A DNA stretch of 64,000 nt from Escherichia virus TH58, in the sequence record MT446423.1. One strand, written 5' to 3'. The position numbers and the translations under genes were made by a program. Positions 1,251 to 5,406 of the stretch are shown here, piece after piece. Below the pieces are notes generated by a model, which saw only the letters and a program-made list of their open reading frames with translations, made no database searches and was not told where the DNA came from. How positions within the stretch are numbered: position 1 is the stretch's first letter; the number at the start of each line of letters is the position of its first letter.

Positions 1251-1724
1251 ATGTTATTATCAGGCGCAAAATATAAAGAAGAAAAACAAAAATTTTATGA
1301 TGCACAGAATGGTAAGTGTCCTATTTGCCACCGTGAATTAGACCCTGATGTTCAAGGTAACCATCTTGACCACGACCACGAATTAAACGGGCCAAAAGCA
1401 GGTAGAGTTCGTGGGTTACTCTGTAATCTGTGCAACGCAGCAGAAGGTCAAATGAAGCATAAGTTCAACCGTTCCGGTCTTAAAGGACGTGATGTTGACT
1501 ACCTCGAATGGCTTGAAGCTCTTCTTGCTTATTTGAAACAAGATTATTCTGATAATAATATCCATCCTAATTTTGTTCCAGACAAAACTAAAGAGTTCTC
1601 AAGACTAGGTAAAGAGGAAATGATGGCTGAGATGCTTCAAAGAGGATTTGAATATAATGAATCTGATACCAAAACACAATTAATAGCTTCATTCAAAAAG
1701 CAGCTTAGAAAGAGTTTAAAATGA
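1251..1724 (+). CDS. 49: endonuclease VII (Holliday-junction resolvase), gene 49
   Basis: 157 aa; CPICHRE..HLDHDH..CNLCN zinc/His motifs; matches T4 endo VII as remembered; adjacent to nrdD as in T4. Confidence 0.88.
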   Translation: MLLSGAKYKEEKQKFYDAQNGKCPICHRELDPDVQGNHLDHDHELNGPKAGRVRGLLCNLCNAAEGQMKHKFNRSGLKGRDVDYLEWLEALLAYLKQDYSDNNIHPNFVPDKTKEFSRLGKEEMMAEMLQRGFEYNESDTKTQLIASFKKQLRKSLK

Positions 1725-2258
1725 AAATTGAAAAAGAAATTGAAGGATTAATTCATAAAACTAATAAAGATCTTTTGAACGAGAATGCTAATAAAGATTC
1801 TCGTGTTTTTCCAACTCAACGGGACCTTATGGCTGGTATTGTGTCTAAGCACATTGCTAGAAATATGGTCCCGTCTTTTATTATGAAAGCACATGAAAGC
1901 GGAATTATCCATTTCCATGATATTGATTATTCCCCTGCTCTTCCGTTTACTAATTGCTGTTTAGTAGATTTAAAAGGAATGCTTGAGAATGGATTTAAAT
2001 TAGGCAATGCTCAAATTGAAACGCCTAAATCTATTGGCGTTGCTACTGCAATTATGGCACAAATTACTGCACAAGTTGCTTCACATCAGTACGGCGGAAC
2101 GACTTTTGCTAATGTAGATAAAGTACTTTCTCCTTATGTTAAACGCACCTATGCAAAACATATTGAGGATGCAGAAAAATGGCAAATCGCTGATGCGTTG
2201 AATTATGCCCAATCTAAAACAGAAAAAGACGTATACGATGCATTCCAAGCTTATGAGT
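1721..2258 (+). CDS. nrdD: anaerobic ribonucleotide reductase NrdD, exon 1
   Basis: N-terminal NrdD sequence; reading frame hits TAA 2264-2266 just inside a group I intron; 5' splice site placed after U2258 by P1 pairing (exon AUGAGU with intron GCUCAU at about 2272-2277). Confidence 0.85.
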
Positions 2259-2469
2259 TAATTTAATTCAGGCTCATGTAAAACCGGTCTAAACGGGGAA
2301 CCTCTCTAGTAGACAATCCCGTGCTAAATGTTCTTTTGAACTAAATGCCTAACGACTAACCGTGATGAATGTAGCGGTGTAGAATAGAAGCTAATGCTAT
2401 TCGAAACGGCCGGCATCGAAAGATGAAGATATAGTCTAATCTGCATGGCGACATGCAGCAGTCATCTTG

Positions 2470-2477
2470 TATAAATA
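2470..2477 (+). promoter_or_regulatory. T4 late-promoter motif TATAAATA upstream of intron ORF
   Basis: Exact TATAAATA about 30 nt upstream of ATG 2507, followed by GAGGTG Shine-Dalgarno. Confidence 0.4.
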
Positions 2478-2506
2478 AGATTATCTTATGAATACGAGGT
2501 GAAACA

Positions 2507-3277
2507 ATGAAATGGATAAAAAGACGTTGTACTAAAATAAAAGATAAAGACGCATTTACATACTTAGTTAAGTTTTCTAATGGCGACATTTATATCGGTT
2601 ATAAAAAATTTAGAACAATTAAAAACAAGCCCACAAACTGGAAAACTTACACAACGTCATCTAAGTATATAAATGAACGCTTAAAAACTGATACACCTAC
2701 TAAATGGATAATTTTAAAAACATTTGATAGTTATAAAGACGCATTAAAACATGAAGAAGAGGTCATACGTAAATATTTTTATAACAAAAAATGTTTAAAT
2801 AAATCCATAGGCGGTAAAAAGTTTTATAAGCATCCGGATACTGAAGAACATATTCAAAAATTAAGAGATGCTCATAAGGGTAAAGTGTTATCCGAATCTC
2901 ATAAAAACAATATAAAATCTTCTGTAGCTGAATATTATGCTAAAAACGGAAGATCTAAGGAACATGTGCAAAATAATATCAATAGTCGAAAAAGTAAAAA
3001 ACAAGTATCGATAAAGCTTAAAAATAAAACTTTTAGAAGTTTTAAAAAAGCGGCGGAATATTTAAATTGCACTGAAAGTGAAGTCGAAACTCATCCTCTT
3101 GTTTTGAGTATTAAGACTACTATTCATAAAGTTCCTGAATATGTGGTTGTTGACGGTATTAAGTATACGTCTTATATAGAAGCAGCTAAAGCGCTAAATT
3201 TTCATCCTAGCACTATAAAAGAACGTTGCATATCTATGGACTATCCAAATTTTGTTGTTTCATATAAACGGGCATGA
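2507..3277 (+). CDS. intron-encoded GIY-YIG homing endonuclease (I-TevII-like)
   Basis: 256 aa within nrdD intron; N-terminal GIY-YIG-like segment (..DIYIGYKK..), repeated NUMOD3-like basic repeats, C-terminal helix-turn-helix (VVDGIKYTSYIEAAKALN). Confidence 0.8.
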   Translation: MKWIKRRCTKIKDKDAFTYLVKFSNGDIYIGYKKFRTIKNKPTNWKTYTTSSKYINERLKTDTPTKWIILKTFDSYKDALKHEEEVIRKYFYNKKCLNKSIGGKKFYKHPDTEEHIQKLRDAHKGKVLSESHKNNIKSSVAEYYAKNGRSKEHVQNNINSRKSKKQVSIKLKNKTFRSFKKAAEYLNCTESEVETHPLVLSIKTTIHKVPEYVVVDGIKYTSYIEAAKALNFHPSTIKERCISMDYPNFVVSYKRA

Positions 3278-3291
3278 ATTTGCGACTCATG

Positions 3292-4583
3292 CTGAATATA
3301 ATGATGAAGTAAATACACTTTTCAGCTCTAATGGACAAACGCCTTTTGTAACAATTACATTTGGAACAGGAACTGACTGGACTGAACGAATGATTCAAAA
3401 AGCAATTCTGAAAAATCGTATTAAAGGTCTTGGACGTGACGGGATAACTCCTATTTTCCCTAAACTTGTTATGTTCGTTGAAGAAGGTGTTAATCTTTAT
3501 AAAGACGACCCGAACTACGATATTAAGCAGCTTGCTCTAGAGTGTGCAAGCAAAAGAATGTATCCTGATATTATTTCGGTTAAGAATAATAAAACTATCA
3601 CCGGTTCTTCAGTTCCTGTTTCTCCAATGGGCTGCCGTAGTTTCTTGAGCGTATGGAAAGATTCGACTGGTAATGAAATTCTTGATGGACGTAATAATCT
3701 TGGCGTTGTAACACTGAATCTTCCTCGTATTGCATTAGATTCTTATATTGGAACACAATTCAATGAACAGAAATTTGTTGAGTTATTTAATGAACGAATG
3801 GATCTGTGTTTTGAAGCCTTGATGTGTAGAATTAGTTCCTTAAAAGGAGTTAAAGCGACTGTTGCTCCTATTCTTTATCAAGAAGGTGCATTTGGGGTTC
3901 GTCTTAAACCTGATGATGACATAATTGAGTTATTTAAAAACGGTAGAAGTTCGGTGTCTTTAGGATACATTGGTATTCATGAATTGAATATTCTTGTCGG
4001 ACGTGATATTGGGCAAGAAATTTTAACTAAAATGAATGCTCGTCTTAAGCAGTGGACTGAAAGAACTGGTTTTGCTTTTAGCTTGTATTCTACTCCCGCT
4101 GAAAACCTTTGTTATCGCTTCTGTAAACTTGATACCGAGAAATATGGAAGTGTAAAAGATGTTACTGATAAAGGCTGGTACACTAATAGTTTCCATGTTT
4201 CAGTAGAAGAAAATATCACTCCGTTTGAAAAGATTTCTCGCGAAGCACCATATCATTTCATTGCGACCGGCGGACACATTTCTTATGTTGAACTTCCTGA
4301 TATGAAAAATAACTTAAAAGGACTTGAGGCTGTATGGGATTATGCCGCACAACATTTAGATTATTTTGGTGTTAATATGCCAGTAGATAAATGTTTTACA
4401 TGTGGAAGTACCCATGAAATGACTCCTACCGAAAACGGATTTGTTTGTTCTATTTGTGGAGAAACTGATCCTAAAAAGATGAACACAATAAGAAGAACAT
4501 GCGGTTATCTCGGAACTCCTAGCGTTGTTCCGTGGAATTTAGGTAAAATGAAAGAAATGGTAAAACGAGTAAAACATGCATAG
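3292..4583 (+). CDS. nrdD: anaerobic ribonucleotide reductase NrdD, exon 2
   Basis: Continues NrdD; zinc site CFTCGS..CSICG and C-terminal glycyl-radical motif RRTCGYLG; spliced protein about 609 aa. Confidence 0.85.
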
Positions 4584-5406
4584 GTATTATATAATTTATA
4601 AAATAACAAATATAATTAATTCAAAGGAATATATCGGTGCGCATAGCACCGATAACATAAATGACGGTTATATGGGGTCAGGAACATTGATTCGTGCCGC
4701 TTTATTAAAATATGGTAGAAAAAATTTTAATAAAGAAATTTTACATGTTTTTGATAATGAAAAACAAATGTATGATAAAGAAGCTGAACTTGTAACCGAA
4801 GAGTATTGTCTAAAAGAAAATACATATAATATTAAACCTGGTGGAAAAGGTGGAACTGCCTATGAACAGACACTTGAACATCGCCGCAAAAATAGTTTAG
4901 CAAATAAAGGTAAAAAGAGAACAGAAGAAACTAAAATAGCTATTTCACGTGCTTTAAAGAAATATAAACGTACGCCAGAGCATCAAGCAAATTTAAATAA
5001 AGCCGTAAGCATAGCTATGAAGCGAAAAGATGTTAGAAGTAAATTAGCTGGAGAGCGGTCTGAGAAAGATAAATTATCTATATCAAACGGTGTTAAAAAA
5101 TATTACAATTCTTTGAGTGAAGAAGAACGCGAACTTCATCGCAAGCGAATTATTGAAGGTAAAAAGAATTCTCCCATGTCATTGGAATCTAGACAAAAGC
5201 TTTCAAAAGCTTTAAAAGGACTTCAAGTTGGTTCAAAAAATCCAATGTATGGAAAAATTTCTCCGACTAGCAAAACCGTTTCAGTTGACGGTATTAAATA
5301 TGATTCAATTAAAAAGTGCTCAAATGCCATAAAAGTTTCTAGACATCTTATACTAAAACGCTGTAATTCTACTGATGAAGCTTGGAAAAATTGGGTATTA
5401 TTATGA
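4576..5406 (+). CDS. free-standing GIY-YIG homing endonuclease (Seg-like)
   Basis: 276 aa; classic YYIIYKITNIINSKEYIGAHST..GYMGSG GIY-YIG motif, NUMOD3 repeats, C-terminal HTH; inserted between nrdD and nrdG with overlapping start/stop. Confidence 0.8.
   Translation: MHRYYIIYKITNIINSKEYIGAHSTDNINDGYMGSGTLIRAALLKYGRKNFNKEILHVFDNEKQMYDKEAELVTEEYCLKENTYNIKPGGKGGTAYEQTLEHRRKNSLANKGKKRTEETKIAISRALKKYKRTPEHQANLNKAVSIAMKRKDVRSKLAGERSEKDKLSISNGVKKYYNSLSEEERELHRKRIIEGKKNSPMSLESRQKLSKALKGLQVGSKNPMYGKISPTSKTVSVDGIKYDSIKKCSNAIKVSRHLILKRCNSTDEAWKNWVLL

Follow-up and report, generated by a model that had tools for sequence, protein, structure and literature searches.

The window analyzed here, 64,000 nt of the T4-like phage Escherichia virus TH58 (MT446423.1), carries the anaerobic ribonucleotide reductase gene nrdD, interrupted by a group I intron of 1045 nt at positions 2259..3303; this and all features described below lie on the + strand. 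The intron was recognized by the Rfam family RF00028, and its limits were drawn from the alignment with the T4 join (NC_000866 43535-46385), intronless alleles and a protein alignment with PDB 1H78 and 9D3X. Exon 1 (1721..2258), which is approximately 95% identical to T4 nrdD exon 1 in the alignment, is open from the ATG at 1721 and comprises codons 1-179 and the first base of codon 180. An earlier note on this DNA had described the nrdD frame as interrupted after U2258, and this holds: the unspliced exon-1 frame meets a TAA at 2264-2266, just within the intron. Exon 2 (3304..4583) begins AUGAAGUA and ends with the TAG at 4581-4583. Removal of the intron restores the reading frame and would give a NrdD of 605 aa, equal in length to T4 NrdD and colinear with it in the protein alignment, with the sequence ..AFQAYEYEVNTLFSS.. 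(..QAYEYEVNTLF..) at the join. The corrected exon junction is GAGU-AUGAAG, predicted in the mRNA as ..GCUUAUGAGU joined to AUGAAGUAAAUAC...

The ribozyme core and its pairing with exon 1

RF00028 matched positions 2223-2458 with a score of 72 bits, above the gathering score of 50 (local E 4.8e-18; window-wide E 2.7e-16), and it is the sole Rfam match within the 64-kb window. This score was obtained with laxer filters; a whole-window Rfam run at the gathering threshold returned no match, an empty result that is probably a filter artefact. The conserved group I core that had been proposed from the letters, with a covariance model as its check, is accordingly found above the gathering score of the family. 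P1 (2253..2277) is formed by exon AUGAGU 2253-2258 and the guide GCUCAU 2272-2277, with the wobble U2258.G2272 at the splice site; it was read from the sequence, as before, and recovered by RNAalifold from the alignment of the window with T4. Position -3 is G in intron-bearing alleles (GAG-U) and A in intronless ones (GAA-U), an exchange that would break the G2256-C2274 pair of P1. For the window construct without the ORF, the minimum free energy (MFE) structure has exon AUGAGU paired with ACUCAU 3285-3290 in the tail and not with the guide, and this pairing is a possible competitor of P1 in the folding model.

The core helices (2284..2458) are supported by the Rfam alignment, MFE folds and RNAalifold. 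The Rfam alignment places P3 at 2284-2289/2408-2413, P4 at 2293-2298/2317-2322, P5 at 2303-2305/2311-2313, P6 at 2323-2324/2347-2348 and P6a at 2330-2333/2338-2341; P7 (2354-2358/2432-2436), P8 (2414-2417/2422-2425) and P9 (2441-2447/2452-2458), placed in the same way, have their complementarity present in both the window and T4. Subgroup IA, the T4 td/nrdD type, is marked by two additional helices located between P3 and P7, namely P7.1 and P7.2, and both are predicted in the window and T4 lineages: P7.1 (2359-2363/2374-2378, ACCG/CGGU) with two compensated pairs relative to T4, and P7.2 (2382-2387/2397-2402, GAAUAG/CUAUUC) with three. With their ORFs deleted, the window and T4 introns have MFE structures of the same P1-P9 architecture, and RNAalifold of the two predicted 14 pairs in which both bases have changed, of which 12 lie in P3, P4, P6a, P7.1 and P7.2, a covariation that comes from two deep lineages only and counts differences, not independent events. 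As a side observation, GCAG after P9 (2455-2458) could pair with UUGC of the terminal loop described below; this pairing is compensated in T4 (GCUG/UAGC), possible in the introns of phages navn and phi92, and broken in that of JSE.

The intron-encoded endonuclease and its predicted expression and mobility

The ORF of the intron (2507..3277) encodes, without interruption, a GIY-YIG homing endonuclease of 256 aa orthologous to I-TevII of T4, to which it is 56% identical over 256/258 aa (145/257 aligned positions identical, E 2e-102); the full length and the I-TevII likeness claimed for it are thereby upheld. Its domains had been said to include GIY-YIG and NUMOD3. The former stands, with PF19835 matched above the cut-off at residues 9-107 (27.7 bits, cut-off 25), and the latter does not: no Pfam match to NUMOD3 was found at E up to 1, and a helix-turn-helix-like module, NUMOD1, was detected instead at residues 171-193 (25.1 bits, cut-off 22.8). 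The NUMOD3 match of T4 I-TevII is itself below threshold (18.8 bits vs 20.4). The FTY..YIG motif, the HEE motif and N98 are invariant between this protein and the T4-type enzyme, and 130 columns are invariant in addition to FTY..YIG. It belongs to PHROG 314 ('homing endonuclease') and is 99% identical to a protein cluster of 64 members (P0001), differing from the representative at 3 of 256 residues. Intermediates between the window and T4 endonuclease lineages were absent among 5.8 billion proteins, which yielded two clusters only; an IMG/VR search with the endonuclease returned one locus, of the T4 type, and a full-text literature search for I-TevII homologues found no description of them.

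Upstream of this gene, the T4 late-promoter motif TATAAATA is located at 2470..2477, 30 nt from the ATG. The 64-kb window holds four copies of the motif vs 7.7 expected by chance, so that the count alone is no evidence; what bears out the earlier claim that the ORF has its own late-promoter motif is its position, which is homologous to that of TATAAATA before I-TevII in T4 and carries a late-promoter annotation in phage SA20RB. The motif overlaps the 5' arm of a hairpin (2463..2501; stem 2463-2472/2492-2501 enclosing an inner hairpin), the 3' arm of which covers GAGG 2496-2499 and would hide this Shine-Dalgarno sequence. The MFE of the hairpin is -17.8 kcal/mol (z -4.9), none of 200 shuffled sequences folded as well, and its T4 equivalent is CCUCGUAU/AUACGAGG. 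With this layout, late transcripts would start inside the hairpin that hides the Shine-Dalgarno sequence, and late transcription is predicted. A late promoter together with a hairpin hiding the ribosome-binding site has been described for I-TevI, II and III (PMC2988022). The sequence at 2482-2507, just upstream of the ORF, also resembles the homing site (17/26), a suggestive likeness that seven other places in the window equal in score.

Over 40 sequenced Tequatrovirus records, with exons that differ by 4-6%, contain this intron at an identity of at least 99.5%. Compared with four other phages, 1040-1041 of its 1045 nt are identical, exon 1 is 93.7-96.1% identical and exon 2 is similar. A near-identical intron within diverged exons suggests a recent spread, and the intron is probably still mobile, since an identity of at least 99.5% among phages is found with flanking exons that are only 94-96% identical. 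It could be argued that the ribozyme splices but the element has ceased to move, its endonuclease being inactive or unexpressed and the intron being passed on by vertical inheritance only. We consider this improbable, yet deserving of attention: the endonuclease gene is frameshifted in phages F1, FN and 236Ecol005PP, and is hence dispensable and decaying in some genomes, and inspection by eye did not locate the Arg that typifies the GIY-YIG motif. Against it, (i) the ORF is full length, with 132 columns invariant relative to active I-TevII, (ii) the promoter and hairpin anatomy has been kept, and (iii) such identity of the intron between diverged exons is hard to obtain by vertical descent alone.

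The 3' splice site

The 5' splice site, after U2258, is identical in position to the T4 nrdD (sunY) intron site in the alignment. The earlier note had placed the 3' splice site after G3291, with an intron of 1033 nt, the join ..QAYE-S-EYNDEVNTLF.. and a P10 of UUCAG with CUGAA. Four lines of evidence indicate, on sequence grounds, that the terminal (omega) G is G3303, 12 nt further downstream, so that the intron measures 1045 nt (1033 nt being the length of the T4 intron) and the join becomes ..QAYEYEVNTLF... First, the 3' end of the intron in the window, ..CUGAAUAUAAUG followed by AUGAAGUA with the cut after G3303, aligns to the T4 junction CAUUG-AUGAAG. Second, the join of 2258 to 3304 is contiguous, without any indel, in 617 intronless phage records, and it is present as contiguous DNA in 19 contigs of IMG/VR, where contigs with exon 1 joined after G3291 numbered zero. 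Third, taking the intron end as the G whose removal recovers the host protein, G3303 does so and G3291 fails, as it adds four residues (SEYND for Y) relative to T4 NrdD (PDB 1H78) and to a distant NrdD (PDB 9D3X).

The fourth line is provided by the structure of the 3' end, which was compared in five intron lineages (the window, T4, JSE, navn and phi92). Folding predicts a 3'-terminal hairpin (3271..3293) in which GGCAUGA 3271-3277, containing the stop codon of the ORF, pairs with UCAUGCU 3287-3293; its T4 counterpart is GGUAGAG/CUCUACU, with four of the seven pairs changed on both sides. Over the five lineages, 91% of the cells are paired and four pairs are changed on both sides, vs no more than 51% after sliding of the partners. 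The hairpin is followed by a single-stranded tail (3294..3303, GAAUAUAAUG) that ends at the terminal G3303; none of the five introns deviates in the UGAA that follows the hairpin or in the final UG. CUGAA 3292-3296, taken before as the exon-2 strand of P10, is therefore intron sequence, because UGAA stands directly 3' of the terminal hairpin in all five lineages; moreover, it is an element of the intron and not an exon partner, since it is kept in JSE, navn and phi92, the 5' region of which cannot pair with it. The likely P10, read from the sequence, is formed by UGAA 3305-3308 and UUCA 2267-2270 (4 bp), where T4 has 3 bp (UGA/UCA). Regarding P9.0, T4 has UGAA at the P7-P9 junction and UU in front of the terminal G, where the window has UAAU and AU, a pattern that fits one compensated pair; AU precedes both G3303 and G3291, hence P9.0 does not discriminate between them.

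Use of G3291, always or as an alternative, would produce the 1033-nt intron and a NrdD of 609 aa with SEYND in place of Y180. Several features speak for it: besides the AU that it shares with G3303, the join is in frame, and the CUGAA that follows is perfectly complementary to UUCAG 2267-2271 beside the guide (5 bp vs 4 bp at G3303), a pairing that the construct without the ORF shows in its MFE structure. Nevertheless, we regard this reading as very unlikely. Neither T4 NrdD nor a 734-aa homologue has the four inserted residues, the extra 12 nt are missing from the 617 intronless alleles and joined to exon 1 in no IMG/VR contig, and the UGAA is retained even by introns unable to pair with it. 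In addition, G3291 is itself paired to C3273 within the hairpin, which shows compensatory changes across the five lineages, and the equivalent base in the other four is A, C, C and U, that is, never G. As a minor, cryptic 3' site, G3291 may give rise to a NrdD isoform with four extra residues.

GenBank annotation of the window-type intron follows neither join: three of the four inspected records list two nrdD CDS and a 'homing endonuclease', nrdD is uncalled in the fourth, and none of the four gives nrdD as a join. That nrdD is truly split into two polypeptides, without RNA splicing, as such records could be taken to mean, is nonetheless hardly credible, given that the two pieces flank a complete group I core that shows covariation, that the 'second CDS' of the records has its start codon, an arbitrary TTG or ATG, within the intron ORF, and that the T4 orthologue is annotated at the same site as a join of two pieces, with a gap of 1033 nt and a product of 605 aa that agree with PDB 1H78. 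The T4 td, nrdB and nrdD introns have been described as self-splicing (PMC2988022).

Relationship to known introns and proposed mechanism

By its insertion site and the location of its ORF after P9, the intron is, as far as the sequence tells, an orthologue of the T4 nrdD (sunY) intron; it is not the T4 intron itself. Both share (i) the host gene, the insertion after ..UAUGAGU and the P1 guide GCUCAU, (ii) the helix architecture, including P7.1 and P7.2, (iii) the TATAAATA motif with the hairpin hiding the ribosome-binding site, and (iv) the terminal hairpin followed by 11 nt to the terminal G, as well as the protein sequence at the join. They differ in length (1033 nt in T4 vs 1045 nt), in the endonuclease (56% identical) and in the lengths of P7.2, P8 and the promoter-region hairpin. 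The core had been called T4-type, which is right for the intron family but less so for the sequence, as the ribozyme is only 72.5-77% identical to that of T4 nrdD, with at least 14 compensated pairs.

The T4 td intron belongs to the same family and shares with the window a GIY-YIG endonuclease (I-TevI), a late promoter and a hidden ribosome-binding site (PMC2988022). In contrast, its host gene is another, its ORF lies in the P6 loop and not after P9, the two endonucleases are not close relatives, and overall core identity is about 78-80%. A 42-nt block of the window core (2288-2329; P3', P4 and P5) is 100% identical to td. The second-site nrdD introns of JSE (Krischvirus), navn (Vequintavirus) and phi92 have cores 77-84% identical to that of the window, as close to it as the T4 core or closer, and they share its 3'-terminal hairpin (loop ..GCGA..) and tail (UGAA..AAUG); unlike the window intron, they lie between ..SPMG and CRSF.., about 110 codons downstream of its site, and their ORF is unrelated, in a different loop, or absent (phi92). 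It is tempting, if tentative, to speculate that the window intron is a natural chimera which acquired its P3'-P4-P5 block from td by recombination between the introns of td and nrdD inside a phage genome; its endonuclease gene, regulatory hairpin and insertion site would share an ancestor with the T4 nrdD intron. Domain shuffling between introns has been seen in the laboratory in T4, and the chimera, if real, would be an example of it in the wild.

Taken together, these results point towards a group I intron at the T4 sunY site of nrdD that ends at G3303, carries the gene of an I-TevII orthologue under probable T4-like late regulation and would spread by homing, a reading to which we assign a probability of about 0.88. 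The main proposal of the earlier note, that nrdD contains a group I intron bearing an intact gene like that of I-TevII and a late-promoter motif, is retained in it, on the strength of RF00028, the identity to I-TevII and the near-identity of the intron between diverged exons. The sequence shows the core, both boundaries, the uninterrupted ORF, the layout of its regulatory elements and a population pattern that fits recent spread; that the intron splices, that its enzyme cuts, when the gene is expressed and whether the element moves at present are what we infer from it and by analogy. Following the mechanism of the family, guanosine would attack after U2258, held in P1 by the U.G wobble with the guide GCUCAU, and the freed exon 1 would then attack after G3303, presented by the terminal hairpin, the 11-nt stretch from U3293 (of the closing G.U pair) to G3303 and the short P10 (UUCA/UGAA); the outcome would be the 605-aa NrdD. 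On early nrdD transcripts the endonuclease gene would probably be silent, as in T4, its ribosome-binding site being hidden by the hairpin, and late expression would probably come from its own TATAAATA promoter, with transcripts starting inside that hairpin. Homing would then consist of cleavage of intronless nrdD by the enzyme close to the insertion site, with the 617 intronless alleles as candidate targets, and of a repair that inserts a copy of the intron.

The finding itself is ordinary and leaves current knowledge of how such elements work unchanged. Notwithstanding, the corrected junction and length permit a single 605-aa nrdD annotation in the four inspected records and probably in some 40 others. 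A second, equally widespread sunY/I-TevII lineage furthermore provides comparative data beyond the single T4 sequence, with more than a dozen compensated core pairs and a covarying 3'-terminal hairpin that helps to define the 3' splice site, and an endonuclease of 56% identity that presumably has the same target would be useful for studying GIY-YIG specificity during divergence.

Group I intron within nrdD

The window belongs to a T4-like phage of the genus Tequatrovirus. Its gene 49, for endonuclease VII, ends at 1724; from 1721, a plus-strand ORF whose product matches the N-terminal part of T4 NrdD extends to a stop at 2264-2266. An intron ORF of 256 aa (2507-3277, +) comes next, and the remainder of NrdD continues in frame on the plus strand to a stop at 4583. 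Phage F2 is the closest full-length database match to 1721-4583 (96.7%); at least 80% of this stretch is covered in 63 phage records, with partial matches only in about 1100.

The earlier note had placed a group I intron with an intact ORF after U2258 and named an Rfam search as a check, and in these respects it correctly identified a well-known kind of element. With laxer filters, the group I intron family RF00028 matches 2223-2458 with 72 bits, where the gathering score is 50 (E = 4.8e-18 when only the local sequence is searched and 2.7e-16 window-wide), as the sole match of any Rfam family in the whole 64-kb window. Since this was obtained with the same library, the zero matches of the whole-window scan at the gathering threshold are a filter artefact; such an empty scan does not prove absence, the intron having been missed while well above the family's gathering score. 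Exon 1 of T4 ends as that of the window does (..UAUGAGU, U2258 here).

With their ORFs deleted, the introns of the window and of T4 have minimum free energy (MFE) folds that contain the same helices P3, P4, P5, P6/P6a, P7.1, P7.2, P8 and P9. RNAalifold on the two sequences gave 59 pairs, 14 of them changed on both sides yet still paired (two in P3, two in P4, three in P6a, two in P7.1, three in P7.2 and two in others). Complementary strands for P7 (GACUA 2354-2358 with UAGUC 2432-2436, +), P8 and P9 exist in both lineages. The P1 proposed previously, AUGAGU 2253-2258 with GCUCAU 2272-2277 (+), also holds, with U2258.G2272 at the splice site. In both lineages, exon 1 of every intron-bearing allele examined ends in GAG-U; the two intronless alleles inspected have the synonymous GAA-U instead. 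The latter would turn the G2256-C2274 pair of P1 into A.C; as G is needed for this pair, G2256 (position -3) probably travels with the intron.

The 3' splice site

The nrdD gene of T4 is annotated as a two-piece join spanning 2851 nt (NC_000866, 43535-46385), which implies a 1033-nt intron, and the span in the window exceeds it by 12 nt. When both loci are aligned, the exons are about 95% identical and the 5' part of the intron about 73-77%, and the intron ORF is far more diverged. The T4 intron ends in ..CUGAACACAUUG, followed by exon 2 AUGAAGUG, and the homologous point of the window, between ..CUGAAUAUAAUG and AUGAAGUA, places the 3' splice site after G3303. The intron therefore comprises 2259-3303 and measures 1045 nt, and not the 1033 nt that resulted from placing the 3' splice site 12 nt upstream, after G3291. 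Splicing at G3303 yields ..AFQAYEYEVNTLFSS.. and a 605-aa product, equal in length to T4 NrdD. A 300-nt query joining 2109-2258 to 3304-3453 was matched unbroken, 300 nt to 300 nt, by 617 phage records; these are intronless alleles, and lack the 12 nt formerly assigned to exon 2. In IMG/VR, the corrected join is contiguous in 19 contigs, and the earlier one was found as contiguous DNA in none. The earlier join would also create a 4-residue insertion at 'SEYN' in alignments with two solved structures, PDB 1H78 (T4 NrdD) and PDB 9D3X (an NrdD of 734 aa), both of which read EY-E(V/I)NTLF at this position.

Close to its 3' end the intron has a 7-bp hairpin (3271-3277 with 3287-3293, +), in whose fold G3291 is paired to C3273. 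T4 has a hairpin of different sequence in the equivalent place (GGUAGAG/CUCUACU; 4/7 pairs changed on both sides), and the hairpin is also present in the second-site nrdD introns of phages JSE, navn and phi92. Across these five lineages, 91% of the cells are paired and four pairs changed on both sides, against at most 51% of cells when the partners were slid by 1-3 columns; most of the unpaired cells come from T4, which the MAFFT alignment shifts out of register by one column. In none of the other four lineages is the counterpart of G3291 a G (it is A, C, C and U), and all five share the UGAA behind the hairpin and the UG that precedes the exon. This invariance makes CUGAA a conserved intron element, found even where the 5' region of the intron cannot pair with it, and it was consequently rejected as the exon 2 partner of UUCAG in the P10 drawn previously. 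With splicing after G3303, UUCA 2267-2270 and UGAA 3305-3308 would still form a likely P10 of 4 bp, at the place where T4 has one of 3 bp.

The intronless alleles, IMG/VR, the NrdD alignments and the pairing of G3291 all led us to reject the upstream site. G3291 may still act as a minor cryptic 3' splice site, as it is preceded by AU in the window lineage and has a 5-bp match to UUCAG downstream, although its pairing inside a conserved hairpin argues against such use. Separately, ACUCAU 3285-3290 in the 3' tail closely resembles the guide sequence GCUCAU and has no counterpart in the T4 intron; the MFE fold of the ORF-deleted construct pairs it with the end of exon 1 (2253-2258), displacing P1.

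Endonuclease genes and predicted expression signals

The intron ORF is 56% identical to T4 I-TevII across its full length (E 2e-102) and is assigned by PHROGs to homing endonucleases. Pfam recovered the GIY-YIG domain (PF19835) and NUMOD1, each above its own cut-off; the NUMOD3 also named by the earlier note had no Pfam match. A search of 5.8 billion proteins returned two clusters only, the window type (99% identical, 64 member sequences) and the T4 type (56%, 38 members), with no intermediate endonucleases among them. By tblastn, 44 phage records carry the gene at 95% identity or more, and about 25 carry the T4 type at 56%, including phage U5, whose match spans only 84% of the query. A few window-type copies are frameshifted (236Ecol005PP and, according to tblastn, F1 and FN).

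The late-promoter motif reported before this ORF, TATAAATA (2470-2477, +), is present at the same position as that before I-TevII in T4; it has only four copies in the 64-kb window, a count that by itself is not above chance. A strong predicted hairpin (2463-2472 with 2492-2501, +; dG -17.8 kcal/mol, z -4.9), with an equivalent in the T4 nrdD intron, covers the ribosome-binding site, its 5' arm overlapping TATAAATA and its 3' arm holding the Shine-Dalgarno GAGG. For the three T4 intron endonucleases, PMC2988022 describes a hairpin that keeps the ribosome-binding site hidden on long early transcripts and leaves it free on late ones, which start within the hairpin. Judged from sequence, the predicted layout in the window is this same arrangement. 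Just upstream of the ORF, 17/26 positions of 2482-2507 (UAUCUUAUGAAUACGAGGUGAAACAA) agree with the homing site at the exon junction; seven other places in the window equal this score, so that the likeness is only suggestive. A comparable similarity, operator-like or to the invasion site, has been reported for T4 I-TevII.

Between nrdD and nrdG lies a further GIY-YIG/NUMOD3 ORF of 276 aa (4576-5406, +), 99% identical to a phage F2 protein annotated 'SegH'; in T4 the HNH gene mobC takes this place. Over its last ~80 nt (4501-4583), nrdD differs strongly from T4 and from phages without this ORF (50-80/120 aligned positions, gapped), as would be anticipated next to a free-standing homing endonuclease gene.

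Relation to other introns and signs of spread

The intron shares kind, site and anatomy with the T4 nrdD (sunY) intron encoding I-TevII but is a distinct, little-noticed sister lineage, of which a literature search that lacked the two most relevant papers found no published description. Its core is no nearer to that of T4 nrdD (77% identity) than to those of second-site nrdD introns from other phage genera (77-84%) or the td intron (78-80%). The T4-type td intron has a 42-nt block of the core in common with the window intron at 100% identity (2288-2329; P4, P5 and the 3' strand of P3), whereas about nine of these positions are different in the T4 nrdD intron; the block may be a trace of recombination between td and nrdD introns. 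The second-site family, seen in JSE (1989-2745 of its locus), navn and phi92, is inserted about 110 codons downstream, between ..SPMG and CRSF..; its members have a related core, share the 3'-terminal hairpin and tail, and carry another ORF or none.

None of the four public records inspected for the window lineage (SA20RB, F2, KAW3E185 and 236Ecol005PP) annotates nrdD as a join: it appears as two CDS, the second beginning inside the intron ORF, or is uncalled (KAW3E185). Hundreds of intronless alleles with nearly identical flanks constitute potential homing targets. The window intron differs from its copies in four other phages at 4-5 positions (1040-1041 of 1045 identical), and three of these differences are private to the window; exon 1 is 93.7-96.1% identical in the same comparisons and exon 2 is similar. 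Such uniformity, far above that of the essential gene in which the intron sits, is what recent horizontal spread by homing would give.
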